Positions 10,878 through 35,582 of a stretch of DNA of 64,000 nucleotides are shown piece by piece. Source of the DNA: an uncultured Fimbriimonadaceae bacterium (GTDB taxonomy: Bacteria > Armatimonadota > Fimbriimonadia > Fimbriimonadales > Fimbriimonadaceae); NCBI GenBank assembly GCA_965652385.1, contig CBFGUV010000003.1, positions 41,411-105,410 of the forward strand. Direction: 5' to 3'. Position 1 is the stretch's first letter. Every line of letters begins with the position of its first letter. The notes beneath the pieces were generated by a model. That model was not told the DNA's origin and made no database searches. It saw only the letters and a list, made by a program, of their open reading frames with translations. Made by a program: the position numbers and the translations under genes.

Positions 10878-10953
10878 GGGGCTATAGCTCAGTTGGGAGA
10901 GCGCTTCCATGGCATGGAAGAGGTCAGGGGTTCGAATCCCCTTAGCTCCACCA
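10878..10953 (+). tRNA. tRNA-Ala (anticodon GGC)
   Basis: Hand-folded 76-nt cloverleaf. Acceptor GGGGCTA/TAGCTCC with the G3:U70 alanine identity pair, anticodon loop ATGGCAT, T-loop GGTTCGAATCC, and an encoded CCA. Confidence 0.93.
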
Positions 10954-10973
10954 AACCCCACCCGTTCAGGTTC
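10909..10973 (+). repeat. attL: direct repeat covering the tRNA-Ala 3' half plus 20 nt downstream
   Basis: 10909..10963 is identical to 26093..26147. After one extra C in the right copy, GTTCAGGTTC matches again. The repeat begins at the anticodon loop. Confidence 0.88.
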
Positions 10974-11034
10974 AAAATCGCTCTCTCCCACCTGACCTAT
11001 CGCCCCTTGATTCCTCCGGCACAAGGAAAAAACA

Positions 11035-11988
11035 GTGCCAAAACTCACGATTGACCAATTCCGCGAGGATTCTGGGAAAACACTCAATGAGGCCGTAGAG
11101 TCGTACTTCCTGCACAAGAGAGCAGCGGGACATTCGCCCTCATCCATCAAGCAGTACAAGTGGGCTCTGCGTGGCCTGACCGACTGGCTTGAGGCACATA
11201 AAATAGCCTCGCCAGCCGATATCAGGCCGGACCATCTACGACTGTATATGGAGACCGTGAAACAGCGAGGGCTCGCCTCTTCAACCGTTTTCAGCCACTT
11301 CAAATGCATCCATGCCTGGCTGACCTTCCTGCACTCGGAGGAAGAGATCCCCACCAACCCGATCCAGAAGGTAACGGCACCTAAAGTGATCAAGAGGATT
11401 CATCCAGCCTTGACACAAGATGAGCTAAGAAGGCTGGACACTCATCTTGCTGGAAAGTCTGTCTTCAAGATTCGAGACCGAGCAATCTTCCTTCTGATGC
11501 TGGACACATGCCTTAGGAGGTTTGAAGTAGCCGATATAAGAAACCGTGATATACGGGATGACGGCACGATCCTGGTTCTTGGCAAAGGCGGCAAGGAGCG
11601 CATCGTCAAGATGGGACCTCATACGCTTGCGGCAGTCCGCAAATGGATGCGCGTCCGAGGAGGCAAGCCTGACGACTGGCTGTGGGTCGGCAAGCATGGT
11701 CCTTTGACCAAATGGGGCTTGACCATTCGGTTCGAGCAGATCAGCAGACAGACGGGCATTCACCTACACGCTCACAAGATACGCAGGACCGGAGCTCTCC
11801 TCATGTACCGATCAGGGATGTCACTCTTCACGCTTCAGACAATCTTAGGCCACGCTTCGCCTGAGACAACCCGGATTTACTTGGACATCCGGGAAGAAGA
11901 CATTTGCCGCGAACATGATATGCATAGTCCGGTGGAGTCCTTGAAACGGCAAAGAGGATCAATGCCAAAAAACCGCCAGAGTATGTGA
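11035..11988 (+). CDS. Tyrosine-type site-specific integrase (XerC/D-like)
   Basis: N-terminal SAM-like core-binding domain. Catalytic signatures are DTCLRRFEVADI (Arg I), HAHKIRRTGA (H-x-x-R) and LGHASPETTRIYLD (His and Tyr). GTG start. Confidence 0.9.
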   Translation: MPKLTIDQFREDSGKTLNEAVESYFLHKRAAGHSPSSIKQYKWALRGLTDWLEAHKIASPADIRPDHLRLYMETVKQRGLASSTVFSHFKCIHAWLTFLHSEEEIPTNPIQKVTAPKVIKRIHPALTQDELRRLDTHLAGKSVFKIRDRAIFLLMLDTCLRRFEVADIRNRDIRDDGTILVLGKGGKERIVKMGPHTLAAVRKWMRVRGGKPDDWLWVGKHGPLTKWGLTIRFEQISRQTGIHLHAHKIRRTGALLMYRSGMSLFTLQTILGHASPETTRIYLDIREEDICREHDMHSPVESLKRQRGSMPKNRQSM

Positions 11989-12019
11989 TGGGAATCTGAC
12001 GAGCCTCCCCATCACATAC
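11981..12019 (+). terminator. Hairpin at the integrase stop codon (possible terminator)
   Basis: Perfect 12-bp stem GTATGTGATGGG / CCCATCACATAC with a 15-nt loop. Only a weak T tract (TT) follows. Confidence 0.35.
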
Positions 12020-12439
12020 TTAACGGCAATTAGCCGTGGTCAGTTCTCGTCAGGGCTGACCTTATCATTTGGTTGAACCCATCTGATTGGGTGGTGGCCT
12101 GGTATGGCTGGCTCAGAAACAGCAGCAGATCAGCTCAAAACAGAGCGGAATTGAGCAAAGTATTGCTGCTCCAGATAGGGGGTGGGTTCCAATAATGACC
12201 CCGGGGTCGTTTTCCTGCGGTAGTTCCTGCACCGAGGCGGAGCAGGAGTCCTCAAGACGGGGTGTCTGGACCTAGCGGTCCAGCCTGGAAAACGAGCCCT
12301 CTCATAAAGTCCGATTATCGGTCCGCTTCGCAAGCACTTCGTGCTTCAACGATAATCGTGGTTTATGAAGGTCTCGAATCTCTTGAGACCGGACCTTGTT
12401 CGACCTGTGTGATTCCAGGCGCTTCGAGCCTGAAACGGG

Positions 12440-13294
12440 GTGAGGCATCGACCTCGCTTGGAGACACACATGAACGAACAGATCAATTCCATCACTCAGA
12501 AGGCTCTCAGCGACCTGGCTTCCTCCCTCGCAGAAGGCAGAAGCCACAGACTGGAATGCTTTTTGAAGGCGATGGCGACATTCCACCGCTACAGCTGGCA
12601 GAACACCCTTCTCATCTTCTCCCAGAAGCCGGAAGCCACGCACGTTGCGGGATTCAGGGCCTGGAAGAAGCTGGGCAGATGGGTGAGGAGCGGAGAACGC
12701 GGAATATCGATCCTCGCTCCCTTAATGTTCAAAGCCAAAGACGAGAAGGGGGATGAGGAGCAGATTCTGGGATACAAGGCGGTCCGCGTCTTTGATATCT
12801 CGCAGACCGATGGCCGGCCACTGCCCGACCTTGGAAAGGTGAGGGGTCAGCCGGGAAACCACATCGGCCGACTCATGACATTCGCAAAGAAGGAGGGCAT
12901 CACCATCGAGTGCGTCGAAGATCTCGGCGGAGCCGATGGCGCCTCTGCCGGAGGAGCCATCAAGCTCCTTAGAGGACTTCCACCCGGAGAGATGTTCGCC
13001 GTCCTTGCACACGAACTCGCGCACGAGCTTCTCCATCAGGGAGAGGACTTTGACCGTGGAACGGAGGAGCTGGAGGCAGAGGCCGTTTCGTTTGTCCTCT
13101 GCAGCGCGATCGGTCTTGAAACTCTGGAGAGGAGTTCTGATTACATCGCGCTCTATCGAGGCGACGAAAAGGCGCTGGTCGAATCCTTCACGAGAATCCA
13201 GTCAGCCTGCAGCCGGATGCTTCCGGTCGTGATGGACCGGACGCAAAGGAGGGCGATGCAGAGAGGCCTCTTTTCAGGCTTCGGGCACGGATGA
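12440..13294 (+). CDS. ardC: ArdC-like anti-restriction protein (ssDNA-binding N-domain plus HExxH metalloprotease domain)
   Basis: ArdC-N/DUF1738-type motif YSWQNTLLIFSQ..GFRAWKKLGRWVRSGERGI, and a C-terminal LAHELAHELLH motif. The likely true start is the ATG at 12470 (MNEQINS). Confidence 0.78.
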   Translation: MRHRPRLETHMNEQINSITQKALSDLASSLAEGRSHRLECFLKAMATFHRYSWQNTLLIFSQKPEATHVAGFRAWKKLGRWVRSGERGISILAPLMFKAKDEKGDEEQILGYKAVRVFDISQTDGRPLPDLGKVRGQPGNHIGRLMTFAKKEGITIECVEDLGGADGASAGGAIKLLRGLPPGEMFAVLAHELAHELLHQGEDFDRGTEELEAEAVSFVLCSAIGLETLERSSDYIALYRGDEKALVESFTRIQSACSRMLPVVMDRTQRRAMQRGLFSGFGHG

Positions 13295-13421
13295 TCTGGG
13301 CTGTCACGGCTCATCGGGAGATACTGAGTAGATCAGCATCTCCCGTGATGCCCTTTCTTCAAAAGGGACGCCTACATCCCGCCCATCCGCAAGCCCGGTC
13401 GAGATGGACTATGGACAGAAT

Positions 13422-13748
13422 CTACAAACCCTGATGCCAGAAGCAGTTCAACTCATGACCGCGTTGACGGAGGTCATAAATCTTGTCCTTGATTCTGTCG
13501 CTCTCACGGTCATACCGCGCATAGCTGATGTCCTTGTTGTCATAGTGCCAGTCCAGCTCCGCCCTCTCCTCCGCCGCCTCAAGAATCATTCCTTCGATTG
13601 TGTAACAGGATGTGACTGACTCGTATGGCTTCGCCTGGGCGCAGGATCCGATCACTCCGTAAAGGATGATTCCGGCTCCAAAGAGAATTGATCCCCACAC
13701 GACAACTCTCTGGACGGTCTTGATTTTTATGACGATTACGTCACTCAC
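13422..13748 (-). CDS. Small membrane protein, function unknown
   Basis: 108 aa with one hydrophobic helix (VVVWGSILFGAGIILYGVIG) and a charged C-terminal tail. Overlaps the upstream ORF by 8 nt. Confidence 0.5.
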   Translation of the reverse strand: MSDVIVIKIKTVQRVVVWGSILFGAGIILYGVIGSCAQAKPYESVTSCYTIEGMILEAAEERAELDWHYDNKDISYARYDRESDRIKDKIYDLRQRGHELNCFWHQGL

Positions 13749-14226
13749 TGATCCTTCTCCAAGTCACTGAGAGATTTGGGTTAGCTGAGGAAGTCAGGGT
13801 GAGTTCGGACGGGCTCGCGAAGCTGCACTTCCACGACTCGAATTGGCCGTTGTGCAGGGTGATGATTAGCTTGTCACCCTCCAGTTCGTACCATCCTCTA
13901 ACGGGCTCTGACAAATAGATGATTCGGTTCCTATGACGGCGCACCTCCGGACGTACTCCATCCTTCTGCTGCTGTTCGGAGACAGGCGCAAAGCCAGAAG
14001 TGAACCTTCCGTCAAATTCAAAAAGGAGCCTTGCTGTGAATCCGCCCCGTTCCCCCTCCCAGGCTCCCACCAAGCTGTATATCTTCGGCCTTGGCTCGTT
14101 ACTCGTCACCCGAATAATAAGGCTGGGAAGGAAGAGTATGAGAGCAATCCCTCCAAATAGGGCAGTGAGAAAAGCCAACTCAGTACGCCATGTCCGGGTT
14201 GGTCGGGAATCTATCGTCATACTCAC
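13741..14226 (-). CDS. Membrane-anchored protein, function unknown
   Basis: 161 aa with an N-terminal TM helix (LAFLTALFGGIALILFLPSLII) followed by a beta-rich soluble part. Divergent from the XRE regulator gene. Confidence 0.55.
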   Translation of the reverse strand: MSMTIDSRPTRTWRTELAFLTALFGGIALILFLPSLIIRVTSNEPRPKIYSLVGAWEGERGGFTARLLFEFDGRFTSGFAPVSEQQQKDGVRPEVRRHRNRIIYLSEPVRGWYELEGDKLIITLHNGQFESWKCSFASPSELTLTSSANPNLSVTWRRISE

Positions 14227-14234
14227 AACAGACT

Positions 14235-14257
14235 AATGACTATAACTTATAGTCATT
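14235..14257. promoter_or_regulatory. Perfect 23-bp palindrome, candidate operator for the XRE regulator
   Basis: AATGACTATAA-C-TTATAGTCATT has 11-bp arms with no mismatch. It lies in the 53-nt divergent intergenic region between 14226 and 14280. Confidence 0.6.
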
Positions 14258-14279
14258 TATCAGTGCAAGTCTTGGTGCC

Positions 14280-14546
14280 TTGGGTAAAGAAGGCCGCAAA
14301 TCGCTCAACACGAAGGAGCACGACCTGCTCTTGGCGACACTTCGAGACGCACGGGAAGCGGTCGGACTCTCACAACGGGAAGTCAGTCGTCGCCTTGGAT
14401 TCCAGGAATCGGTCTACGGTGCGATTGAGCGGGGAGAGCGCTCGCTCGACGTAGTTGAATTTGTCTTAGTTGCCCGGGCTCTGGACCGTGAGCCAGTTGA
14501 GCTCTTTGGACGGTTTCTCAACGCCGAGAAATCCAATCCCGCATAG
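14280..14546 (+). CDS. XRE (Cro/CI) family helix-turn-helix transcriptional regulator
   Basis: The HTH_3-type motif is LSQREVSRRLGFQESVYGAIERGERSLDVVEFVLVARAL. TTG start, so the start is uncertain. Confidence 0.78.
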   Translation: MGKEGRKSLNTKEHDLLLATLRDAREAVGLSQREVSRRLGFQESVYGAIERGERSLDVVEFVLVARALDREPVELFGRFLNAEKSNPA

Positions 14547-14818
14547 GTTGAAACCAAGTAGCCATGATAGTCCCGATCTGTAGACCCGATCGGAACCCAG
14601 CCGAATACTGAGACGTTGAATCTATAGAGATCATTTCCACTCACCAGTAGAAATGGCCCTTTGGAGGCCGAATCACGCGCGGTCGCGGTGATGTTGTCCG
14701 AGGGCAGACCTCTCTTCAAGGTTGGACACCACGAAGAAACTTCAGAATCGGCCACTACTTGTTCAAATTCATTTTGGTGTTTTTGAACCGAATCCATATC
14801 GTCCTGGCTAGACATCAT
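14414..14818 (-). CDS. Hypothetical protein (doubtful)
   Basis: 134-aa ORF divergent from the RepA-like gene. Its 3' end overlaps the XRE gene by about 130 nt, and I recognise no motif. Confidence 0.22.
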   Translation of the reverse strand: MMSSQDDMDSVQKHQNEFEQVVADSEVSSWCPTLKRGLPSDNITATARDSASKGPFLLVSGNDLYRFNVSVFGWVPIGSTDRDYHGYLVSTYAGLDFSALRNRPKSSTGSRSRARATKTNSTTSSERSPRSIAP

Positions 14819-14943
14819 TGCATGGTGTCTGGGCCCTAGATATTTATTCGGTTTCTACACCATAAAATGAGAAAACAGAGAACATATAACTCGCAAGAGA
14901 GATTTGGTCGTTTTTGCATCACCAGCATTTCTGGAGGTGCCCA

Positions 14944-16086
14944 ATGAGCTGGACTTACAAAGTCTTTGACTTCGATGATGTCGAACGTCTCCCCGCTCCG
15001 CGGTACATAGTAGACAAGCTCATCACAGAGAAGTCAATCACCCTTCTCTACGGACCACCGAACGTCGGAAAGTCGCTCGTGGCGCTTGACCTCACCCTAG
15101 ATGTCATTCGAGGCAGTTGTCAATTCGCCGATCAATATAAGGTCTGTACGCCGCGCAATGTCATCTACTTCTTCGCGGAAGGTGCGGAGGGCTTAGGCAA
15201 GCGTCTTCGCGCCATGTGGAAACAAAAGACGCATAACGCGACACAAACAGACTGGGCGGAAGCCAAAGGACGATTTAAGGCCGTCAATGGCGTACCGATC
15301 TTCGGGTCAAGGACATTCTGTGAGGAATGGCAAGGCTTCCTAGGGAGCCGTCCTGAGCTTGCGACGAGAGTCGAGGGTGCACTAATCATCATCGATACCT
15401 TGAGCTATACGCTGGCGGACAGAAGCGAATCGGTTTCCAACGATATGGCAGCCCTTCTCGAGAAAGTTCGATATGTGATCGACAAGCACAATTGCAGCGT
15501 CCTTTTGATTCATCACGGCAATAAACAGGAGAACAGAGGGATGAACAATGTCCGTGGCTCCACTGTTCTCCCGGCGATTGTCGAGATGGCATTCAGTCTA
15601 AAGCGTAACAAGAATGTTTATTACATGACACAAGAAAAGGCTCGTGATTCTGCATACGAGACTGGCATCGCTTATCAACTAGCGCTATCGGATCCGAATG
15701 AGCCGAACAATGGTGTGTATCTTAAGTGGTTAAAGGAGGGCGAGATACCACGCTCGAAGGCTACTGCGTCTATACCTCCAGTTGTAAAGGCGATGAATCA
15801 ACACAACATTGATTCTGAGGACTCTGCCAAAACTGCAAGTGAGATCGCGGCGCTGGAAGAAGTGACGAATGCACGATCAACTGTCTCTGGTCAATTGAAG
15901 AGACTGGCTGAGCAAAAATTGGTGCAGACGAAGAACAATGACAGGGGCTACGCGGTCTACTGGGTTCCGGCGAAGGATGGTGCTGCGTCCACTGCTGATG
16001 ATCCATCTTCTCCCAGAGAAAATGCGAATGTCCAATCTCCGCCACAGGTACAGGAGGAAGCACCAAAGAACCCGTTCGATGATTAG
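14944..16086 (+). CDS. RepA-like AAA (AAA_25/RecA-fold) ATPase with a C-terminal winged-helix-like region; island replication or mobilisation protein
   Basis: Walker A GPPNVGKS, Walker B ALIIIDTLS, LLIHHGNK, and a C-terminal STVSGQLKRLAEQKLVQ. The ATG at 14944 is preceded by GGAGG. The track ORF starts 30 nt earlier. Confidence 0.78.
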   Translation: MSWTYKVFDFDDVERLPAPRYIVDKLITEKSITLLYGPPNVGKSLVALDLTLDVIRGSCQFADQYKVCTPRNVIYFFAEGAEGLGKRLRAMWKQKTHNATQTDWAEAKGRFKAVNGVPIFGSRTFCEEWQGFLGSRPELATRVEGALIIIDTLSYTLADRSESVSNDMAALLEKVRYVIDKHNCSVLLIHHGNKQENRGMNNVRGSTVLPAIVEMAFSLKRNKNVYYMTQEKARDSAYETGIAYQLALSDPNEPNNGVYLKWLKEGEIPRSKATASIPPVVKAMNQHNIDSEDSAKTASEIAALEEVTNARSTVSGQLKRLAEQKLVQTKNNDRGYAVYWVPAKDGAASTADDPSSPRENANVQSPPQVQEEAPKNPFDD

Positions 16087-16105
16087 TACTGCTGGCTAAG
16101 TGCTG

Positions 16106-16178
16106 CCTTGGTGTCGTGTCGGTTGTCTGTTGTCTGCCCCTAAAGGGGGCAGGACAAACCGACACTCGACACCAAGGC
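16106..16178 (+). other. Long imperfect hairpin downstream of the RepA-like gene (terminator or origin-like structure)
   Basis: GCCTTGGTGTCG..CTGCCCC / GGGGCAG..CGACACCAAGGC arms around a TAAA(G) loop. The left arm has a tandem TTGTCTG x2 (16123..16136) that forms a bulge. No T tract follows. Confidence 0.4.
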
Positions 16179-16433
16179 CACGAGTCACCCCTGTAAGCAA
16201 GAGCACGCTAAGCCGCTTGGGGTGCCAACTATAAGCTCCTATTAGTTCTGGGAAAGAGGATTAAACTCTAACAGGTATTCAACCGACTAAGGCGCGCTAG
16301 GCTGATACGTGACACCGAAGATCGTGTCACTCAAGCACCTTCGAAAATCCTGGTTGTCAGAAAACTGCTTGAAAGACTCCGTGTCATCGGGCATCCAAGC
16401 TTCTTGATTGCTAGGGAACAGGCTTTGTTGAGA

Positions 16434-16925
16434 TCACTTCATAGACCCAGTTCCCTTCAAGTCATCGAGGAACTCGGACGCATCGCCTCCAGACGTGACC
16501 AGCAGGTAGTCGCGGGCTCGAGTGCAGGCAACGTAGAGCAGATGCCGTTCGGTTTCGTACACAGCCCTCAAATCGGAGTCTTCTCCAGCGTCTTCAAGTC
16601 TGGATTGCAGAGGAATGATGTCGTCGTCACAAGCCATGACCGCTACGGCTCGGAACTCAAGACCCTTCGCGAGATGCATGGTCGACACGGCAATCGCTCC
16701 GGGTTCGGCAGGAGAGTCGGCATCCAGCTCTTGATAGCTCAGTCCAGCTTTTTTAACAACTTTAGTCGCTCGGATAAGCTGGAGAGTGTCTCGCACGATG
16801 ATGCAGGTCTCCTCCGGGGCGATGCCTAAGCCGGACATTCCAAGTACCCCTCGCCAGCGTAAGCGATCACTCAACAACCTCGCGTCCACTCGCTTCCGCC
16901 CTGGCTCCGATGGCATCGAGCTCAA
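16434..16925 (-). pseudogene. Remnant of a UvrD/Rep/PcrA-family helicase (C-terminal domain only)
   Basis: Only the late helicase motifs are present: STMHLAKGLEFRAVAV and LLYVACTRARDYLLV. ATPase motifs I-IV are absent, and only about 220 nt separate it from the hsdR stop. Confidence 0.7.
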
Positions 16926-17148
16926 TATCCAGCCACGCCATCTCTTCCTTGCGTTCCGTGGTGCTCGAATACACCACGGATCAGTGCCGCATTGAAAGTG
17001 AGATCAACGAGCTATTTCAGCAGCTTCGGGCAATCGACTCTATGGTAACGCTCATGCGCCGCGAGGATCGGATTACGCTGCGCCGACTCAGCTCAGAGTA
17101 ATCACGGAGGGGATGGTGGTACTGCTGTGTCGCCACCCCTTTACGCTC

Positions 17149-20100
17149 CTAAACGGTCCCTGCGTCGCCAGCCCTGCGTCGCACTTCGGTAAGAGCCTGA
17201 AGAATCTGATCCAGCTCTTCTCCTGGGAACAGGTCGTCGGCGCCTGTTGGGCTGATGTCGACGAAGGGTGACTCGTAGAGGCGGTGGCCATCGAGGACAC
17301 CATGGTCAGCCAAGTGATCAATGATGAGCTCAACAAACTCTATCTGAGTGCCGCTCAGACTCTGTTCGTTGATGGCCTGACTCAATGCACTCTGTGCCGC
17401 TTGTCGGTCAAGGCCAACCAGCAACCGCACGAATAGCCCGAGGTTCTCTTGCTTGGCCTGGATGAGGAGGTCGGGGGCATTTGACGCAGGCTCTCGTAAG
17501 AGGCTTTCCAGCTCATCCAGATCGGCCGAGGTCAGAGGCTCGTTCATTCGGAGCTTGATGACGGCTGGAGAGTCAAGGTGCTCCCTGAGAAAAGCCCTCG
17601 CTTTCTCCTTGAACCGCTCAAAGCTGGCCCCGCCGCGAAAGGCCGGCAGTTCGATCAACTCCTCTTCTCCCAGCTCATCCTCAAAGTCTGTGTAGACGGG
17701 GCTTCCCTTCGGATGCTGGACGATCGTTACCAGGCCACGAAGGCGCAACCGGAGCTGCTCCAGCATCGGTACTGTCACGTCCTGCCACCATTCCTCTGCC
17801 TGTGCGGCCTTGATCAGTTCGATGTGCTTGCTGATCATCGGGATCGATTTGTGTTCTTCGAGCACAGAACAGATGCCCTGCACCTGTTCACTTAACCGTT
17901 TGAATGAGGAGGCCGAAGTGAGAATCGCAAGCTGCAACCTCAAAACAAGCAGGTCAAACCTCTTCGACTCGACAGGCTCTCTTGGCGTCTCAGCGGGCAA
18001 CCCAGCGATGCTGGTTTGCAGGTTGAGATAATCCTCATCCGAAAGGTTAGTCCAGCGACTGGCGTCTTGGAACCTCTCAACCAAACGGCGTTTTGTTCGG
18101 ACAATGAAGTTGTCAGTGTTCATCGCACCAACTTCGGCATGCAGAAGCTCACGGATTGATGTCAGGACATCACTGTCTGTTTCAGGCTCATCCCCGTACT
18201 GAGCGCTGACTTCTTTCACGACCGTTGTCCCATCGCTCTCCAACAGGGCACTCATCACACGCAGACGAGCAACAAAGAGGTGCTTGCTGAGGGATGCGCC
18301 TACTGAGCCGTCCGTGGAAGGCAGATCTTGGCTGAAGAACTCCAGGTTGCTGAGATAGTCGAAAATGTAGAAGAATTCTTTGTCTTTGCCAGGCCCAAAA
18401 AGATCAGGGCACAAGCGGGTTCCACGGCCAACCATCTGCCAGAACTTGGTCTTTGAATGGACTTGTTTGAAGAAGACCAGATTGACAACTTCCGGTATGT
18501 CAATACCAGTGTCCAACATATCGACAGAAATGGCTATATGGGGGCTTTTAGAAGGATCGCTGAAACTGTCGATCAAACTCTGTGCGTAATCGTTCCGATA
18601 GTCGATGACGCGGGCAAAATGGCCCTTCTCCTTGGGGTAGTTGGCATCGAACCGCTCGGCAATGAACATGGCATGCTCATGGTTCTTGGCGAAGATGATC
18701 GTCTTACCCAGCCTGTCCCCGCCATCAAACTTCTGTCCGCGCTCCATCACATGCTTCAGAACCTTGTCAACGGTGCTCTTGTTGAACAGCCACTTGTTGA
18801 CCGCCTCTGGCTCGATTCGGCCGGCGGCCAAAACGTCTTCTGAGCGCTCCTTCCAGTCGGTTAGCTCGAACTGCTCCTTCTCCTCTTCCGAGAGATTGGC
18901 GTAAGTGATGCCTTCCCGTGGCAGCTTCAGTGGCACGCTGACGGAACGAGCGGGGACAAGGTAGCCATCCGCGACAGCCTCATCCAGCGAATAGGCATCG
19001 GTCGGTACCCCATCTTCCAGATCGAATAGACCGTATGTGTTTCGATCAACCTCATCCTTCGGTGTAGCGGTCAAGCCGACGAGGTAGCTGTCGAAGTAGT
19101 CAAAGATGGCCTTGTACTTGAGGAAGACCGAGCGGTGGGCTTCGTCAATGATGACAAGATCAAAGTGGCCCGGCCCGAAGCGGCGCTTCTCGCCCTTTGT
19201 TTCGTCAATCAGTCCGATCATCGTCGGATAGGTCGAGACGTAGATTCGCCCTTCCGCATTCTTTTCGGTCACCAAGTTTACCGGTGCGCTTTCGGGCAAA
19301 AACCTCTTGAACGCATTGACCGTTTGGTTCACAAGAGCCGTTCTATCGGCAAGGAACAGCACTCGGCGGACCCAGTTGGATCGCATCATCATGTCGGCCA
19401 GTGCGATGACTGTCCTTGTCTTCCCTGCTCCTGTCGCCATAACGAGAAGAGCTTTTCGTTGCCGGTCCTTCTCGAACGACTCGGCAATCCGCCGGATCGC
19501 CCTTGTCTGGTAGTGTCTTTCGACAATCTTAGAACTGATGTCTGCCGCGGCCAAGCTACGGCGTGACTTGCGGCGCTGGATCAGAAGTTGGAGTTCGTCC
19601 TTGGTGTAGAAGCCCTGGATGGCTCTTGGGGGATACATCGAATCATCCCAGATCCAGTGGTCGTATCCGTTTGTGTAGAAGATGATCGGCCGACGACCAA
19701 ACTCCTTCTCAAGGCAGCCGGCATACAGCTTGGCCTGCTGCTGTCCTTTTCGAGAGTCGTGGCGAGTGCATTTGGCTTCGATCAACGCAAGGGGCTTTCC
19801 GTCGTCACCCCACAGCACATAGTCAACATAGCCCTTCTCCTTGCTGTTGGGCATGCCGACCACTTCGTACTCGCGATTCTCATCGGTGATGTTCCAGCCC
19901 GCCTCTTTCAGCAGAAGGTCAATAAAGAGATCGCGGGTTTCGGCTTCTGAGTAGTTGTGGGTATCCGGCGTTGCTTCGTTGGTTGCTTTGATCGCCGCGA
20001 CTTCGGCACGGAGCTTCTTCAGCTCCTCATCCAGATTCTCCTTCTCAGCCAGAACGGAAAGGAGCCGTTCTCGCTCAGCATCCAGCTTTTTGTTCGCTTC

Positions 20101-20565
20101 CTGAAGCTGTTCATACGACTGCTTGGTGACCGTCTTAGTGACAGGCAGCTTGCTTGGATCAAAGGTGAGGCCGGGCTCTGGCTTCTCACCTTTAGCATAG
20201 GTGCGGGCGAGCCAGTAACAGACATGAAACAGCTCCCGAACCGCCGCCGTCGCATCCCCAACACTGATCTGTTTGTGGCTATGGACGGCGTGATTACCGA
20301 GGTTCTTGATCGCTCGGCATTTCTGGAAGACGGCTTGGCCAACAAGCTGCTGAAAGCTCGGCTCATGGATCAAGGCGTTGAGGTCGTTTCGGTATGGGAG
20401 TTGAAGCGATGAGTCAGCCCGATATGCCCAGGTGATGGCCAGTTCTAGTGTTCGACGGGCATAGAACGCAGCAGCACGAGGATCGGAATTCGCCAATGCC
20501 TCCGATCGGTGCGCAGGCTGATGGATTTCATTGAACTCTGACTTGAGATAGTCGAATTGCCCCAC
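17149..20565 (-). CDS. hsdR: Type I restriction enzyme R subunit with an N-terminal DUF4145-like extension
   Basis: PD-(D/E)xK nuclease motif (VDYVLWGDDGKPLALIEAKC), Walker A MATGAGKTRT, DEAH box IIDEAHRS, and an EcoEI_R_C-like tail (RLYESPF). GTG start with AAGGAGG 5 nt upstream. Confidence 0.95.
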   Translation of the reverse strand: MGQFDYLKSEFNEIHQPAHRSEALANSDPRAAAFYARRTLELAITWAYRADSSLQLPYRNDLNALIHEPSFQQLVGQAVFQKCRAIKNLGNHAVHSHKQISVGDATAAVRELFHVCYWLARTYAKGEKPEPGLTFDPSKLPVTKTVTKQSYEQLQEANKKLDAERERLLSVLAEKENLDEELKKLRAEVAAIKATNEATPDTHNYSEAETRDLFIDLLLKEAGWNITDENREYEVVGMPNSKEKGYVDYVLWGDDGKPLALIEAKCTRHDSRKGQQQAKLYAGCLEKEFGRRPIIFYTNGYDHWIWDDSMYPPRAIQGFYTKDELQLLIQRRKSRRSLAAADISSKIVERHYQTRAIRRIAESFEKDRQRKALLVMATGAGKTRTVIALADMMMRSNWVRRVLFLADRTALVNQTVNAFKRFLPESAPVNLVTEKNAEGRIYVSTYPTMIGLIDETKGEKRRFGPGHFDLVIIDEAHRSVFLKYKAIFDYFDSYLVGLTATPKDEVDRNTYGLFDLEDGVPTDAYSLDEAVADGYLVPARSVSVPLKLPREGITYANLSEEEKEQFELTDWKERSEDVLAAGRIEPEAVNKWLFNKSTVDKVLKHVMERGQKFDGGDRLGKTIIFAKNHEHAMFIAERFDANYPKEKGHFARVIDYRNDYAQSLIDSFSDPSKSPHIAISVDMLDTGIDIPEVVNLVFFKQVHSKTKFWQMVGRGTRLCPDLFGPGKDKEFFYIFDYLSNLEFFSQDLPSTDGSVGASLSKHLFVARLRVMSALLESDGTTVVKEVSAQYGDEPETDSDVLTSIRELLHAEVGAMNTDNFIVRTKRRLVERFQDASRWTNLSDEDYLNLQTSIAGLPAETPREPVESKRFDLLVLRLQLAILTSASSFKRLSEQVQGICSVLEEHKSIPMISKHIELIKAAQAEEWWQDVTVPMLEQLRLRLRGLVTIVQHPKGSPVYTDFEDELGEEELIELPAFRGGASFERFKEKARAFLREHLDSPAVIKLRMNEPLTSADLDELESLLREPASNAPDLLIQAKQENLGLFVRLLVGLDRQAAQSALSQAINEQSLSGTQIEFVELIIDHLADHGVLDGHRLYESPFVDISPTGADDLFPGEELDQILQALTEVRRRAGDAGTV

Positions 20566-20597
20566 TTGGTCCTCCTTGCTACTACTTCTGCTACCCC

Positions 20598-21428
20598 TTA
20601 GCCCAGGTATGTCTGTTCACCGTCATACGGATTTGATACATACGCTGCGAGACCGGCCAGGGCTATAGAAACGGCAATCACGTCCTTCACCTCAAGGTTT
20701 CGAATAGCATTTGCGGGAGTACCACCGTGTCGAATCCCTGGGTAGTCAGATGCAAAGCCATACATTTTCTTTAGAGAGTCCTTGACGCCTAAGTGGGGCC
20801 ACGTGCCAACCTCGTCAGCAATTGCTCCCATCGTGTTTGCGGTGACCCCAGGGCAAGCATGTCCCAGCGCTTCCAACAGATTGACTTGCTTCTGAATACA
20901 TGTCTTTAACCTTGCTTCGCTTCGATCCGTTCGCAAGTCTCGCAGGGCCGTTTCAAACTCACCAAGAAGCTGCTGCAAGTGAGCGCTTGTGCTTGCAACT
21001 GTCCGCAAGGCACTCACGTGTTTCGCGAAGAGGCCAGGAAGAGTCGGGCAAAGATGACAGGGTTGTCGCAACTCATAGCGAAGGCTAAAGTGGACCAAGA
21101 ACTCATCAAGCAGTTGAAAATAGTAGTTTGCAACTGGATCTCCCCCTAGGTCATCCAAGACTTCATGGACGCTCTCAAGGAAGCCAACCAGGGCAAGTTC
21201 ATTTTGAATCTGACTTGGCCGGATTCTTCTAAAAGCTCTCATAGCCTGGGCCGGGTTATCCGTGATATCAGCAACTTCCTGGACGCTTTTGGGAGCTACA
21301 AGCACAGGATTCAGTGCTCGAAACAGCTCGCAGTAGATATCAGGATGGACTTCGGCAAACTCTTTCGCCAACCTCGTCCACACATACTCACGCATGTCCC
21401 TCCATACCGGCAACAACTCCCCTTTCAC
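20598..21428 (-). CDS. Hypothetical protein embedded between hsdS and hsdR
   Basis: 276-aa, mostly helical-looking ORF. Its GTG start overlaps the hsdS stop (GTGA). No Walker A and no motif I can assign. The C-terminus has YPGIRHGG. Confidence 0.7.
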   Translation of the reverse strand: MKGELLPVWRDMREYVWTRLAKEFAEVHPDIYCELFRALNPVLVAPKSVQEVADITDNPAQAMRAFRRIRPSQIQNELALVGFLESVHEVLDDLGGDPVANYYFQLLDEFLVHFSLRYELRQPCHLCPTLPGLFAKHVSALRTVASTSAHLQQLLGEFETALRDLRTDRSEARLKTCIQKQVNLLEALGHACPGVTANTMGAIADEVGTWPHLGVKDSLKKMYGFASDYPGIRHGGTPANAIRNLEVKDVIAVSIALAGLAAYVSNPYDGEQTYLG

Positions 21429-22603
21429 TTACCACCTCCTAGCAATCTATGCTGTGTAGCTCTTGAGAAATTATCAAGCATCACCATATGGGATTCGCAT
21501 ATGCGTCTTGTCACCTCCCATAAGGCAATCATTTCTTCGTATTCAATTTGAGCCGCCATTGGTGGAACGGGGATCAGGAATTCTTCGATTTCCTTTTTCG
21601 TAATCGCCTCTCTGGTGGCCCCGCTTCCAGCCACCCTCAACAATCTACGCTTGGTAGACGGCAGCAGAAGCAGGTTCTCTAAGTAAATCGGTGACAACTG
21701 TTCATTACACCTGATGATGCTCACATGCTGGTTAACTCGAGCTGGCAGGACATCAGTCGGAGCCCGACAGACTCTTGCAACGCTTGCACCCGTGATATTT
21801 AAGAGAACATCGTTTGCCTCAACCGTCACACTTCGCATCTTTAGCGCTTGTTGATCATCAATGAACGCAAGGCCCTTCCTCACAAAGGCACCATCGTGAA
21901 CATTCATGCTACGTATAAGTGCAGTTCCACTGGGCACATAGGCTGATTCTCCGCCTCTTGGTGTTGATCCACTACCAATCTTGTTTGTCAAAGATTTAAG
22001 GGGCCGATGCTCCCACTTGTCCTCTTTCGATGCAGGATCACCGAATGTCTCGATGAATAGGGAGTGAGGAACCTTCCAGAGATTATCGAGCGATTCGCAG
22101 CGTTTGGCGCGGAGTTCCTCAACCTGATCCAGGATCGCCGCAATTCGCCGTTGCTCGTTAATAGGCGGGAGCGGGAACTTCAGCGATTGAAGTTTAGGCT
22201 TGTTTAGTGTCAGCCCTTTGGCTGCGCGATCCTGCCCTTGTCTATAGTCGATCTGTTGAAGTGCCCAATACAGATATTCTGGAATGAGAGATTCTGGCTT
22301 CAGGATAGGTAGCGCAGCAATGGCTTCATTCGTGCACATCGGCTTGTGTACGATTCCAACCCTTCCTAGTGATAGCTTAAAGCTGAGCAGAACAGTACCG
22401 GGTTCGACTACCTTGCACCTGCATTTCTTCACTGCAGTATCAGTAATCTTCTCCTTGGTGGCACTCAAATACTTGCCCTGACTCATATCAGAGATCGAGA
22501 GCCACGGAACTCCGCCCCCCCAGTATTCACTCTGCTTGCGGGAAGGTGTTCGTCCGATTTCGACTCGACACACTTCCCCAAGACTCACCGAAGGCCAGCT
22601 CAC
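21425..22603 (-). CDS. hsdS: Type I restriction enzyme S (specificity) subunit
   Basis: Two target-recognition halves (LGEVCRVEIGRTPSR..VPWLSISDM and LTNKIGSGSTPRGGE..LIRSMNV) are separated by conserved helices (LPPINEQRRIAAILDQVEELR and PVPPMAAQIEYEEMI). Confidence 0.9.
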   Translation of the reverse strand: MSWPSVSLGEVCRVEIGRTPSRKQSEYWGGGVPWLSISDMSQGKYLSATKEKITDTAVKKCRCKVVEPGTVLLSFKLSLGRVGIVHKPMCTNEAIAALPILKPESLIPEYLYWALQQIDYRQGQDRAAKGLTLNKPKLQSLKFPLPPINEQRRIAAILDQVEELRAKRCESLDNLWKVPHSLFIETFGDPASKEDKWEHRPLKSLTNKIGSGSTPRGGESAYVPSGTALIRSMNVHDGAFVRKGLAFIDDQQALKMRSVTVEANDVLLNITGASVARVCRAPTDVLPARVNQHVSIIRCNEQLSPIYLENLLLLPSTKRRLLRVAGSGATREAITKKEIEEFLIPVPPMAAQIEYEEMIALWEVTRRICESHMVMLDNFSRATQHRLLGGGK

Positions 22604-23499
22604 AGCTGCCCCTCATATGCCTGACCAATCAATGGCAGTACATGACTCACGTCATCAGCATTCCGAATCCTGACTTCCAGATCCCCAGTCCCCCAGTGGC
22701 CGATGGACCGGACATCCCGCATGCCATCCTTGATCTCAACCAAATCCGGATTGAGATGCAGGAAGAGGAGGAGTTCATCCCGCTTAGCAACGATTGTGGC
22801 GAAGTTGCGGGTTCGTTTGTAGGCGAAGTAGAGCTTGGTTGGCTTCTCAGAGACATCCTCGCCCTGGCTCATGATCGCATGCTTCAGCTTCTCGAAGAGC
22901 GCTTGAGTAGCCGGGCTGGCCTCCTCTAAAACCTGCGTGATCGGCTTGTCTGTGGCAGAAGACCTTGAAGAAGCGACCGTAACGCTGGGCACGACGGCGG
23001 TCTCAGTCGAAGTGATACGCTCCAGAAGAAGCTGAGTCTCTCCAAATCGCCGATACCGGACAAGGTCAATGTTGTTCGGCATCAGTTCGTAGGCCCCCAA
23101 GTCATCCCGCGTGAAGTCGGTGGCGATGCAGATGAGCCGAGTTGAGCTGTGATCTATTGAGTCGGCAGCATCCTGCCCCAGCCTCTCGAAGACGATCTTC
23201 CAGAACTCTGCCTTATGACTTCGAAGCCAGGCCATGTAGGACATGCCCTGGTTGATCACCGTCTTGCTCTTGTCAAGCTTATACTCAATCACGACCGGAA
23301 AGCCGTTCTCATCAATCCCCAGCGTATCAATCCGCCCACCCTGGCCGGTCGAGAACTCCGTGGCCACAAACTTCACCCCAAGAAGGGCCTCAAGGTTCGA
23401 TTCAAAGAAGCTCTGAACTTCACTCTCAAGTCGATATGCCGAAGGAGGACACTCACGGGCCTTGCCGCTCTCAATCGAAAAGAGTCGAAGCTCGCTCAT
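22600..23499 (-). CDS. PD-(D/E)xK (NucS/DUF91-like) nuclease-fold protein with a DUF5655-like C-terminal domain
   Basis: N-terminal ESEVQSFFESNLEALLG..GRIDTLGID..VVIEYK..INQGMSYMAWL gives the D...E-x-K...Q pattern. The C-terminal KLYFAYKR..FATIV..LLLFLHL resembles DUF5655, from memory. ATGA and GTGA overlaps on either side. Confidence 0.72.
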   Translation of the reverse strand: MSELRLFSIESGKARECPPSAYRLESEVQSFFESNLEALLGVKFVATEFSTGQGGRIDTLGIDENGFPVVIEYKLDKSKTVINQGMSYMAWLRSHKAEFWKIVFERLGQDAADSIDHSSTRLICIATDFTRDDLGAYELMPNNIDLVRYRRFGETQLLLERITSTETAVVPSVTVASSRSSATDKPITQVLEEASPATQALFEKLKHAIMSQGEDVSEKPTKLYFAYKRTRNFATIVAKRDELLLFLHLNPDLVEIKDGMRDVRSIGHWGTGDLEVRIRNADDVSHVLPLIGQAYEGQL

Positions 23500-24233
23500 A
23501 TGGATGGATCCCTAAAGAACTCGCGTGCAAGCCGCCTATGCTCAGTGATTCGACCGTATGGGTAGTCGATTTCTTCAGAATGCGCTTCACAATAATCGAG
23601 ATAGCGCGTAAGCAGTTGTTTCAGTGAGCGAAACCAGACTGGCTTCACACGATTTGACCAGTACCGCATTAGCGAGCCCGACCATGGCTTTTCCGGATAG
23701 ACTCTCGCTGACTCATGGACATATATTCCAAAAGGTCCAGTATTACGCTCACCGTGATAGGCATTTACGACCGGCGGCCCAATCAGCATTCTTGAAGCCA
23801 AGTCCATTTGGCTGGCCATAGTATTGCAGGCCGAGGCAGTGAGGTTTACACCCTCGAACACTGGTCCATAAGCTATTGAGGCACGGGCTAAGAACACTTT
23901 TCGCATATCACTACCTGCCCGGACATTTGCCAAGTGAACTCTCTCATAGATTCCTACAACCAAATCCCGAATTCTATGGATATCATCTGCTACAACAAAG
24001 AGGCCATCATTCATCGGATACAGTCCAAGGTCTTCCTGATTACTATCGATTGCAGCAGATTGAATCTTGAGGATGAAGTTGATGGCTGATGGCACTGACC
24101 TAACGAGCATCGGTCCAGTCCCCATAACGTCGATCCAGGCAACGTATCTGGGTTGAGTTTTAATGTGCCTTGTGTCAACCGTAGGAGCTGTTGGCTGTTT
24201 CGCCACAGCAATCAAAGGCGGGTCTTTCGGCAT
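23496..24233 (-). CDS. Class III nucleotidyl cyclase / GGDEF-like palm-domain protein (divergent), embedded in the R-M operon
   Basis: Ordered motifs are YVAWIDVMGTG, LYPMNDGLFVV, ARASIAYGPVFEG and MLIGPPVVNAYHGE. They parallel the cyclase motifs F.DI.GFT / IGDa.m.vF / R.GIh.GpV..G / G..VN.AaR.E. The ATG at 24233 overlaps the hsdM stop (TGATG). The track ORF extends to 24290. Confidence 0.6.
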   Translation of the reverse strand: MPKDPPLIAVAKQPTAPTVDTRHIKTQPRYVAWIDVMGTGPMLVRSVPSAINFILKIQSAAIDSNQEDLGLYPMNDGLFVVADDIHRIRDLVVGIYERVHLANVRAGSDMRKVFLARASIAYGPVFEGVNLTASACNTMASQMDLASRMLIGPPVVNAYHGERNTGPFGIYVHESARVYPEKPWSGSLMRYWSNRVKPVWFRSLKQLLTRYLDYCEAHSEEIDYPYGRITEHRRLAREFFRDPSI

Positions 24234-25759
24234 CACAGCATCGCCTCCAGTTCCTTCATTCCTTTCTGAATCTCCTCTTCCAGCTTCCACAGTTCAGCGA
24301 GAATCTCTTTGGGGTCGCGGTGTTCTATCTCTTCGTACTTGATCTCCTTGTACCGGTTGAGGCTCAGATCGTAGCCGTTCTCCGCGATCTCTGACTTCGA
24401 AACACAGAAGCTCTGGGCAGTACGCGGCCGCTCCAGCTCTTTGCCATCACGATCATCCCAGCGCATAAGGATGTCGGGGAGGTTGTTCTTCTCATGATTC
24501 TCCTCGTTGAACATGGCATCCGGACCAAGCTCACTGTCTGGCAGGAGTGGCTTTCGCTTGTCATCCAGGCTCCACCCATCGGCCCTCACGTCATAGAACC
24601 AGACATGATCCGTGCCGCCTGAGTTGGTCTTCTGGAAGAAGAGGATGGCGGTCGAGACTCCGGCATACGGCTTGAAAGCGCCACTCGGGAGACTCACAAC
24701 TGAATCAAGCTTGTGCTTCTCAACGAGCAACTCACGAAGCTCTTTGTGAGCCTTGCTGCTGCCAAAGAGAACTCCGTCCGGAACGATCACCGCCGCCCGT
24801 CCACCCGGCTTGAGGATTCGCACGAAGAGAGCCAGAAAGAGAAGCTCAGTCTTCTTGGTCTTGACGATCTTGAGCAGGTCCTTGGCGACATTCTCGTAGT
24901 CGAGCGAGCCGGCGAAGGGAGGATTGGCAAGAACGAGGGAGTAGCGATCGGCATCGGCGCTGTGCTCATCGGCCAGGGAGTCCTGATAGCTCACATCCGG
25001 ATTCTCGACACCGTGCAGAAGCATGTTCATGTTTCCGATCCGCAGCATGGTGTTGTCGAAGTCGAACCCATGAAACATGCTGTTGTGAAAGTGCTGCCGG
25101 AGCTTGTCATCACGGAGAGCTTCGGGATGGTTGGCACGAAGATACTCCCCGACAGCCACAAGGAAGCCGCACGTTCCGCAGGCTGGGTCACAGATGACAT
25201 CTTCTGGTGTCGGCTGGGTCAGCTCAACCATGAGCTCGATAATGTGACGAGGAGTTCGGAATTGTCCGTTCTGCCCCGCCGTGGCAATCTTGCTGAGCAT
25301 GTACTCGTATAGGTCGCCTTTGGTATCCCGATCTTCCAGCGGGATCTTGTCCACCATGTCCACGACCCGAGCAATGAGTGACTTCGGGATGGTGAACCGG
25401 GCATCTGCCATGTACTTGGAGAACGTGCCACCATCGCCGCCGAGCTGCTGGAGGAACGGGAAGACATGCTGGCTGATCACCTCATACATCTCTTCAGGAG
25501 CCATGTTCTTGAAGTTTTGCCAGCGCAGGTCCTGGTAGCTCCTTCCTTTGCCATCGTCGCCTTCGGGATAGAACTGGTGTTCGAGGGCTCCGCCAAACCG
25601 CTCCGCCTTGTTCTCGGCCAGCGTTTGGAGCTCATCAAGCCGCCTCAAAAAGAGGAGGTAGGTGATCTGTTCAATGACCTCAAGCGGGTTGGAAATCCCC
25701 CCTGACCAGAACGAATCCCATAGCCGATCAATCTGGTTCCGCAAATCCCCGGTGAGCAT
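24233..25759 (-). CDS. hsdM: Type I restriction enzyme M subunit (N6-adenine DNA methyltransferase)
   Basis: HsdM_N-like N-terminus, SAM motif I VICDPACGTCGF, and catalytic motif IV LANPPFAGS. Confidence 0.95.
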   Translation of the reverse strand: MLTGDLRNQIDRLWDSFWSGGISNPLEVIEQITYLLFLRRLDELQTLAENKAERFGGALEHQFYPEGDDGKGRSYQDLRWQNFKNMAPEEMYEVISQHVFPFLQQLGGDGGTFSKYMADARFTIPKSLIARVVDMVDKIPLEDRDTKGDLYEYMLSKIATAGQNGQFRTPRHIIELMVELTQPTPEDVICDPACGTCGFLVAVGEYLRANHPEALRDDKLRQHFHNSMFHGFDFDNTMLRIGNMNMLLHGVENPDVSYQDSLADEHSADADRYSLVLANPPFAGSLDYENVAKDLLKIVKTKKTELLFLALFVRILKPGGRAAVIVPDGVLFGSSKAHKELRELLVEKHKLDSVVSLPSGAFKPYAGVSTAILFFQKTNSGGTDHVWFYDVRADGWSLDDKRKPLLPDSELGPDAMFNEENHEKNNLPDILMRWDDRDGKELERPRTAQSFCVSKSEIAENGYDLSLNRYKEIKYEEIEHRDPKEILAELWKLEEEIQKGMKELEAML

Positions 25760-26092
25760 GTGTCAGGCCAGTCTACACTGGGCCGGAGTCAAGATTGAAC
25801 TCTGCGTTTATGTCGGAACGGACTGATTTAGGCCCCTGGCACGTGAGGTGGAGAAACTCAATGCCAGAAGCGACCTTCTCGCTGGCACCGTGGAGTTCTC
25901 CGAATGAATAGTGTTCGCATTGACCGACGCAACCTCACGCTCACGGTAAGCAACGTTTATCACTGGTGATCGTGAAGGGATTGATTGCCACAACTTGACA
26001 TAAGTTCACACTAGCTGCTACTATTGACCAGTTCCGGAAGGCAAGTAAAGGCTATATGCCAGGTTGAAGGAAGTTTGATAAGTCCTGATCTG

Positions 26093-26158
26093 ATGGCATG
26101 GAAGAGGTCAGGGGTTCGAATCCCCTTAGCTCCACCAAACCCCACCCCGTTCAGGTTC
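26093..26158 (+). repeat. attR: duplicated 3' half of tRNA-Ala (not a functional tRNA)
   Basis: Matches 10909..10973 with a single 1-nt insertion (C at 26148). It lacks the acceptor 5' strand and the D-arm. Confidence 0.88.
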
Positions 26159-35062: not shown

Positions 35063-35578
35063 ATGGAGTTGTTTATGAGCTACCAGTTGAACCTGTTTCA
35101 GCACGAACCGCACTTGCAGTTTGTCGTCAAGCATCACCAGGCGAAAACCCTGCATGACGACTTTCGCCTGGAAGTATTCGGGGCCTTGGCCTCATGGGTG
35201 CTCCCCACACACCCAAGCCTAGACCCCACCGACAGCCTGCGGGCATGGCGCACGCCCGATCACAAGATCAAGTGGATGCTTTCCGAGCGCTGCATCCCTG
35301 AAGGGCAGATCGGCACAGGCCCCATGCTCGTTTGGGATAAGGGGCTGTATCGTCCCATTGCTCCCGGCGATGAGACAGATGATGTGAAGGCTGCGGTTGG
35401 CATTTTGCGCGGAGAGCTTGACGTTGAACTCTCGGGCGAACGCTTGTCAGGACGATTCCGTCTGCGTCGTGCGGGCCGGGATTGGAAGCTGAGCAAGCTG
35501 CCGGATGAGCATGTACGAATCGGACACTGGTGGGATGACCGATCCATCTTGACTGGGCGCACGCTGAGCCAAATCTGA
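35063..35578 (+). CDS. Stand-alone LigD-type 3'-phosphoesterase (PE / LigD_N) domain protein
   Basis: FVVKHHQAKTLHDDFRLEVFGALASWVLP aligns to the LigD PE signature FV.Q.H.A..LHYDFRLE..GVL.SWAVP. The later DHK..W and GELDVELSGERLSGRFRL segments match the PE beta-barrel. Confidence 0.72.
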   Translation: MELFMSYQLNLFQHEPHLQFVVKHHQAKTLHDDFRLEVFGALASWVLPTHPSLDPTDSLRAWRTPDHKIKWMLSERCIPEGQIGTGPMLVWDKGLYRPIAPGDETDDVKAAVGILRGELDVELSGERLSGRFRLRRAGRDWKLSKLPDEHVRIGHWWDDRSILTGRTLSQI

Positions 35579-35582
35579 AATC

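Follow-up and report, generated by a model that had tools for sequence, protein, structure and literature searches.

Guest genes in an island-borne type I restriction-modification operon of a Fimbriimonadaceae bacterium, with junctions that probably serve as cargo slots

When a type I restriction-modification (R-M) operon carries additional genes between its hsd genes, the question arises whether these are parts of the restriction system, partners in a second defence pathway nested within it, or guests that occupy its junctions. We addressed this question for an operon in a 64,000-nucleotide stretch of DNA from an uncultured Fimbriimonadaceae bacterium (contig CBFGUV010000003.1; the whole stretch is hereafter called the window), which reads on the minus strand hsdM, ORF-A, ORF-B, hsdS, ORF-C and hsdR, ORF-A to ORF-C being the three additional open reading frames (ORFs). 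We consider it likely that this is an island-borne type I R-M operon whose inter-gene junctions serve as cargo slots for interchangeable guests, because slot contents vary among related operons of the same lineage. Slot 1, behind hsdM, would hold two independent single-gene modules, ORF-A and ORF-B, and slot 2, behind hsdS, would hold ORF-C as the commonest occupant of that place in this R-M lineage. The guests may be accessory modules that probably provide a second line of defence or act by abortive infection, and by analogy with PrrC, DarTG2 and TgvAB they would profit from joint regulation and transfer with the R-M system. The locus is a fresh instance of a known architecture. It brings together a candidate that is already listed (ORF-B), a divergent relative of another such candidate (ORF-C) and one family with a modelled cyclase fold that the libraries do not cover (ORF-A), and on this reading it would offer a clean and compact natural case, carried by a small mobile island, of three cargo slots within a single type I R-M operon.

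Operon layout and slot contents

Direct reading of the sequence confirmed the gene order and junctions described in an earlier note on this DNA, with all six ORFs where that note had placed them. The first gene of the operon, hsdM (24233..25759, minus strand, as are the other five; 508 amino acids, aa), encodes the N6-adenine methyltransferase (MTase) subunit and matches N6_Mtase (1e-61) and HsdM_N (2e-16) in Pfam and MTase_I (3e-191) in PADLOC. The specificity subunit HsdS (21425..22603; 392 aa) matches Methylase_S in two stretches (Pfam, 3e-27) as well as PADLOC Specificity_I, and the restriction subunit HsdR (17149..20565; 1138 aa) combines an N-terminal DUF4145 with HSDR_N, ResIII, Helicase_C and a C-terminal EcoEI_R_C domain (Pfam; PADLOC REase_I, 5e-175). 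The genes that define a type I R-M system are thus all present, namely an HsdM with MTase domains, an HsdS with two target-recognition domains and an HsdR with a nuclease and a superfamily 2 translocase. Judged by these matches, the Hsd identities are solid and unambiguous, and HsdR belongs to the long, EcoAI/EcoEI-like type. The HsdR N-terminus (residues 3-214; window 20206-20565), where DUF4145 lies, also matches the PADLOC candidate PDC-M16A (5e-19), and this DUF4145/PDC-M16A module is an extra one ahead of the nuclease domain.

The guests ORF-A (23496..24233; 245 aa from its ATG), ORF-B (22600..23499; 299 aa) and ORF-C (20598..21428; 276 aa) are tightly packed between these genes. The stop of hsdM and the start of ORF-A overlap as TGATG, ORF-A and ORF-B share a 4-nt ATGA, both the ORF-B/hsdS and the hsdS/ORF-C junctions are GTGA overlaps, and a 32-nt spacer containing AAGGAGG precedes the GTG start of hsdR. 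Shine-Dalgarno-like purine runs lie upstream of ORF-A (GGAGG), hsdS (GAGGGG) and ORF-C (AGGAGGTG). Overlaps of 4 nt are commonplace in operons, and we therefore take them as evidence of co-transcription and coupling and of nothing further; the six genes would share a transcript that starts at the hsdM end, with their translation coupled. Scanning the operon for promoters and terminators gave counts no higher than in shuffled sequence and was hence uninformative.

The earlier note had put the operon forward as a candidate undescribed system, a claim that the literature overtakes, since embedding of genes in type I R-M operons is already published. Under the name "guilt-by-embedding", operons of type I R-M, BREX, DISARM and Hma systems have been mined for nested genes (bioRxiv 10.1101/2024.01.29.577857, by Payne, Hughes, Fineran and Jackson); 96.7% of embedded genes share the orientation of their host system, and the PDC-S18 and PDC-S32 models stem from the 145 PDC candidates released there, which were not validated in that paper. 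The same-strand genes nested between the hsd genes of the window fit this pattern, and ORF-B is PDC-S18 from end to end; the likeness ends with ORF-A, which together with 44 relatives matches no PADLOC model, and with ORF-C, which matches PDC-S32 only in part. Validated cases of embedding in type I R-M include DarTG2, located between hsdS and hsdR of an enteropathogenic Escherichia coli system at a site called a potential recombination hotspot (PMC12255303), and TgvAB in Vibrio cholerae VPI-2 (PMC11411939), both papers citing PrrC. The guests in the window resemble PrrC (EcoprrI), DarTG2 and TgvAB as independent modules placed between hsd genes and presumably co-transcribed with them, but differ in content, with no ABC ATPase/HEPN, DarT/DarG or GmrSD match in Pfam or PADLOC. 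The earlier note had seen no likeness to PrrC or RloC, and indeed the ABC-type ATPase head and HEPN nuclease of those proteins are matched by none of the three ORFs in either library.

What the slots contain differs from operon to operon within the same R-M lineage. Close homologues found in the protein searches are annotated as Fimbriimonadaceae or Armatimonadota. The closest R-M relative, L115 (3800-14903 of a Fimbriimonadaceae UBA2387 contig), has an HsdM 79% and an HsdR 75% identical to those of the window and reads hsdM, an ORF-A homologue (A'), RhuM, DUF5655, TIR_2, hsdS, Abi_alpha, a 490-aa ORF and hsdR; it lacks ORF-C, and Abi_alpha and the 490-aa gene occupy the hsdS-hsdR slot instead. 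L019 has an ORF-B relative alone between hsdM and hsdS, and L023 holds RhuM, an ORF-B relative and an ORF of 184 aa, with a further ORF of 489 aa ahead of hsdR. In L020, Ymh precedes ORF-C. The contig P0002, with an ORF-A 73% identical to that of the window, reads hsdM-A-DUF5655-hsdS with 4-nt overlaps throughout, and the gene behind its hsdS encodes no fewer than 522 aa, more than ORF-C could account for. In the window itself two guests follow hsdM and one follows hsdS, and a third slot, located before hsdR, is filled in relatives alone. The earlier argument that the inserts are not passengers is contradicted by this interchangeability across related operons.

Two of these loci have features of their own. 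The six embedded genes of L115 are a striking loading of the slots of a single type I operon, and in L020 (1571-13231) a CBASS-like pair (a DncV-like nucleotidyltransferase and a patatin) and a BrxR-family regulator lie directly upstream of hsdM-hsdS-Ymh-C-hsdR, beside an integrase.

ORF-A: family, fold and genomic neighbourhoods

What is new at this locus is the family of ORF-A, which is not covered by the family and defence libraries searched: ORF-A has no match in Pfam, NCBIfam, PADLOC (2.0.0) or PHROGs, and none of 45 diverse members (ORF-A and 44 relatives) matches Pfam or PADLOC. A word-indexed search returned 16 clusters, and 517 were found when 1.84 billion representatives were searched with a full profile; 260 of these scored below 1e-30, and nearly all of the 517 are stand-alone proteins of 225-260 aa. 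A GTG start would extend ORF-A to 264 aa, but the gene as called publicly (P0001) likewise has 245 aa. A second ORF in L005, of 235 aa, was considered as an ORF-A paralogue and ruled out at 17% identity.

We are confident that ORF-A is modelled with a class III nucleotidyl-cyclase fold, to which a helical C-terminal extension is added (helices at residues 201-217 and 226-240). The AlphaFold2 model built from the family alignment has a mean predicted local distance difference test (pLDDT) score of 92.3 and a predicted template-modelling score (pTM) of 0.86, and its top 50 Foldseek matches in the PDB are all class III adenylyl or guanylyl cyclase catalytic domains (probability 1.0, E ~1e-6, target-normalised template-modelling score 0.5-0.65), so that the "palm/cyclase-like" label of the earlier note holds at the level of the fold. 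Across the 45 members D35, G38, D76, G77, G123, E162, P167 and G169 are invariant. The WIDVMG motif around D35 resembles the cyclase FxDIxGFT, YPMNDG around D76 resembles xxGDG, and the glycine-rich strands are also in register. An hhalign comparison with three real cyclase sequences was non-significant (E = 0.088) and was used for register only; it agrees at D76, G123, G128, G152 and E162, with D76 aligned to the GD aspartate, and from its motif and strand position we infer that D35 is the other metal-binding Asp. In the same register the transition-state Asn and Arg positions of VNxAxR fall on V156 and H160, both variable across the family, with N157 found only in the close ORF-A subfamily, and the canonical base-specifying positions are likewise unconserved. 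A profile search of the PDB with ORF-A found no cyclase and only one match, a spurious one to EGFR. We use "cyclase" for the modelled fold and not for family membership or chemistry; ORF-A would probably catalyse a two-metal nucleotidyl-transfer reaction.

Set beside known enzymes, ORF-A shares the catalytic-domain fold and two invariant presumed metal Asp residues with class III cyclases (CyaC, 1wc1; Cya2, 2w01; Rv1625c) and with PycC. It differs from class III cyclases in having no significant sequence match to them and in not conserving the transition-state Asn/Arg or the base-specifying Lys/Asp, and from these and PycC alike in its helical C-terminal extension, the absence of a sensor domain and the absence of a conserved effector partner. 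As a small stand-alone palm-type enzyme in a defence context it also recalls Panoptes/mCpol, a minimal Cas10-like palm enzyme making an inhibitory signal (PMC12657230), but neither Cas10 nor mCpol occurs among its top 50 Foldseek matches, where class III cyclases come first, there is no Pfam mCpol match, and no conserved membrane-effector neighbour was seen at ORF-A loci.

The genomic context of ORF-A was sampled at about 21 independent loci, the genome loci among which were collected with a narrow ORF-A alignment and are biased towards members with the PFG[IV]xVHES motif. These loci span at least eight phyla, with representatives in Armatimonadota, Chloroflexota, Thermotogae, Planctomycetota, Acidobacteriota, Myxococcota, Betaproteobacteria and one haloarchaeon. 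At nine of them the gene lies in or beside an MTase-containing restriction system, the systems being of differing types, and at six of these nine it is directly 3' of the MTase gene. Besides the window, P0002 and L115, where A' follows hsdM in a type I operon, they include a type I lineage whose HsdM is only 30% identical (L105, hsdM-A-75aa-hsdS), an HsdM-S fusion followed by A (L005), an Eco57I-like MTase followed by A and an M78 peptidase (L001), an A that overlaps both a SNF2 helicase and an MmeI-like MTase on its two sides (L014), a helicase, MTase, AIPR and A series (L009), and an A with a type IIG enzyme 1.1 kb away (L013). Elsewhere the neighbours are STAND/NACHT ATPases, an integrase with AAA_15, or unremarkable metabolic and phage-like genes, and the genes 3' of ORF-A homologues differ at almost every locus.

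In one Fimbriimonadaceae metagenome-assembled genome (MAG; L001/L007, 6647-15730) two MNT/HepT toxin-antitoxin pairs are interspersed in an MmeI/Eco57I-like restriction locus, one of them between two MTase ORFs that may be halves of a split gene; the ORF-A homologue is followed there by the M78 peptidase and DUF4411, then by a T5orf172-ResIII protein.

The placement of ORF-A behind MTase genes is, as far as sequence context can tell, the most interesting lead of this study. ORF-A might be tied to the MTase in function, as a guard or regulator that would sense in what state the R-M methylase is, or whether it is inhibited, and respond by nucleotide synthesis or depletion, in analogy to PrrC in EcoprrI. 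In favour of this, the six loci with ORF-A directly 3' of an N6-adenine MTase gene are independent and come from two type I lineages that are unrelated (HsdM 30% identical), from an HsdM-S fusion and from an Eco57I-like MTase, and the gene is wedged between helicase and MTase in L014 and close to others in L009 and L013. However, about half of the ORF-A loci have no detectable R-M neighbour, and the bias in position may only mirror a preferred insertion point, and we regard a guard function as unlikely. Similarly speculative, and in our view improbable, is the proposal that ORF-A founds a stand-alone cyclase-fold immune enzyme family (~517 clusters in bacteria and archaea), preferentially wired to MTase genes and without a dedicated effector, whose signal would be read by host or R-M parts or which would guard the methylase against anti-restriction proteins. 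If ORF-A were a true defence or guard enzyme, nucleotide-based immunity would extend to a partner-less, R-M-linked format. Of the three concrete, clonable candidates in the operon it is the most useful, given its modelled fold, presumed metal ligands, recurrent post-MTase position and lack of a library entry.

ORF-C, ORF-B and the weight of the alternatives

ORF-C has no match in Pfam or NCBIfam and a partial one to PADLOC PDC-S32 (residues 138-242 only, E = 8e-8), a likeness confined to the C-terminal half that recurs in all 35 sampled relatives (E from 1e-7 to 1e-11, best 1.4e-11). Its AlphaFold2 model is all-helical and confident in the N-terminal half only, the invariant motif DYPGIRHGG falling in the low-confidence part, and Foldseek searches with the model found no structure in the PDB or BFVD below E = 0.4. 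When 35 members were scanned against Pfam at relaxed thresholds, no match recurred consistently. Kinship with Hypoth_Ymh, Abi_alpha or the DUF4145 of HsdR was also considered and rejected, hhalign being non-significant for each.

Could ORF-C be a fourth component of this type I lineage, for instance a factor for assembly, regulation or restriction alleviation that has the HsdS/HsdR complex as its target, rather than a separate defence gene? The family is large (1,446 clusters, and 417 confirmed stretches in a metagenome pattern scan), very uniform in length and rich in invariant residues, those of DYPGIRHGG included. Among 80 unbiased metagenomic loci, the best of that scan, where counts are taken over loci with enough flank, the typical order is hsdM-hsdS-C-hsdR: hsdS is directly 5' of ORF-C in 48/54 loci at a median gap of 11 nt, hsdR lies 3' of it in 53/61, and ORF-C is in the hsdS-hsdR slot at essentially every locus that can be judged. 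In 19 of those 53 loci, 0.5-4.7 kb of extra sequence separates ORF-C from hsdR, and the hsdM-hsdS junction is free of cargo in 45/45. Against a fourth component stand the closest R-M relative, L115, which does without ORF-C, and P0002, where the gene behind hsdS is too long to be ORF-C, whatever its identity. Nor does ORF-C diverge together with the subunits it would serve, since its identity is not significantly correlated with that of HsdM or HsdR (rho ~0.27), whereas HsdM identity tracks HsdR identity (rho 0.76, p = 4.5e-5), and its sole database relative is an embedded-gene defence candidate. We read ORF-C as a gene that has been very successful in occupying the hsdS-hsdR slot, and we found no support for an essential fourth subunit, which we hold to be quite improbable. 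ORF-C would be either a missed R-M accessory factor or, being very abundant and confined to that slot, among the commonest candidate embedded defence genes.

ORF-B matches PADLOC PDC-S18 (PDLC04946) over its full length (residues 1-297, 3.3e-112). In Pfam it has a C-terminal DUF5655 and a weak N-terminal NucS_C, and E25, D58, E72-x-K74 and Q84 are invariant in its family, which amounts to an intact PD-(D/E)xK core, as the earlier description of this ORF as "PD-(D/E)xK plus DUF5655" had anticipated; with this NucS-like nuclease domain ORF-B would probably cleave nucleic acid. The family comprises more than 7,500 clusters annotated variously as DUF5655, DUF91 or "predicted transport protein". 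Its members are embedded in four different type I lineages and in varying positions, between hsdM and hsdS in L019, L023 and L115 and between hsdS and hsdR in L108, with an EcoR124_C-type HsdR, and in L112, where SLFN_AlbA_2 follows. More distant relatives occur on 22 IMG/VR contigs, on only some of which hsd genes are detectable. Text searches of the literature and supplements returned no functional data on PDC-S18, PDC-S32 or DUF5655.

The earlier note had proposed to check whether the trio or pairs of it recur near type I R-M genes; the guests do so singly, but not as a set. ORF-B accompanies ORF-A at only 3 of the ~21 ORF-A loci (L115, P0002 and the window itself), which share one R-M lineage, and at the 80 ORF-C loci ORF-A was found in none and a B-like gene in two. 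A PADLOC run, also proposed there, named ORF-B in full and ORF-C in part and left ORF-A without a match. Very unlikely, in consequence, is the signalling pair favoured by the earlier note, a Pycsar-like module in which ORF-A makes a (cyclic) nucleotide on infection, DUF5655 senses it and the nuclease of ORF-B is switched on; the cyclase fold with both presumed metal Asp invariant, the intact nuclease core next to a C-terminal domain that could bind a ligand, and the adjacency of the two genes speak for it, but 18 of the ~21 ORF-A loci have no B within 10 kb, none of the 22 viral contigs with B has an ORF-A-family neighbour, L019, L023, L108 and L112 have B without A, and in L115 RhuM separates A' from B, A' being only 35% identical to ORF-A and B 68% identical to ORF-B (HsdM 79%), and A and B therefore do not co-evolve. 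Pycsar, known as a cyclase-based defence and defined by a cyclase together with a receptor for cyclic pyrimidines (PMC11224242), differs further in that ORF-A and its relatives match no PADLOC PycC model, no PADLOC Pycsar model matches ORF-A or ORF-B, no cyclic-nucleotide-binding effector is conserved next to ORF-A, and ORF-B, with its weak NucS_C and DUF5655, showed no cNMP-binding, CARF, SAVED or other known sensor domain in the Pfam scan.

Several points nevertheless weigh against the interchangeable-cargo reading that we prefer. The near-universal presence of ORF-C and its fixed 11-nt spacing behind hsdS could indicate an accessory R-M role, and the adjacency of ORF-A and ORF-B with an ATGA overlap in the window and P0002, together with their joint presence in L115, may reflect a lineage-specific functional link. 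The ORF-A context sample is small, at ~21 loci for 517 representative clusters, and Hsd genes in the related loci were sought by tblastn with the window proteins, which is insensitive for distant systems. Finally, the guest roles are predicted from sequence and models, PDC-S18 and PDC-S32 being candidates only.

The integrative island around the operon

The R-M operon is the main cargo of a 15.2-kb tRNA-Ala(GGC) integrative island (10878-26147), which we recognised because of its tRNA gene, 55-bp direct repeats, integrase and drop in G+C content (GC). The integration target is tRNA-Ala(GGC) (10878..10953, plus strand; ARAGORN), the 3' part of which is contained in the left copy of a perfect 55-bp direct repeat (10909-10963); the right copy (26093..26147, plus strand), a duplicated tRNA-Ala 3' end, marks the island boundary. 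GC falls from ~62% in the flanks to ~53% from roughly 11 to 26 kb and returns to ~60% past the right repeat. Between the repeats and on the plus strand lie a tyrosine integrase (11035..11988; Pfam Phage_integrase, 6e-29), an ArdC_N-like anti-restriction ORF (12440..13294; Pfam ArdcN, 3e-12; PHROG anti-restriction and metallo-protease) in which a Pfam Peptidase_M78 match is weak and under the cut-off (0.0045), and a RepA/primase-helicase-like AAA_25 ATPase (14914..16086; Pfam AAA_25, 7e-26; PHROG primase/helicase matches); a helix-turn-helix protein is also encoded there. An island that carries an R-M system hence itself encodes an ArdC_N-like anti-restriction domain, and a 48%-identical homologue of this protein adjoins a member of the ORF-A family in a MAG from Acidobacteriota (L015, 11113-12045).

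Directly 3' of hsdR and on the same strand lies an ORF of 163 aa (16434..16925, minus strand) that consists of UvrD_C only (Pfam, 1e-15) and lacks the helicase core. A similar 170-aa UvrD_C ORF is found 3' of hsdR in L023 (15427-15939), and these short ORFs could be remnants or a recurrent small accessory gene. Outside the island and with no relation to the R-M finding, window 35063-40161 (plus strand, GC ~54-56%) encodes a LigD_N phosphoesterase, an ImuB-like (IMS) protein and a DnaE2-like DNA polymerase III alpha subunit of 1185 aa, an imuB-dnaE2-type mutagenesis cassette.

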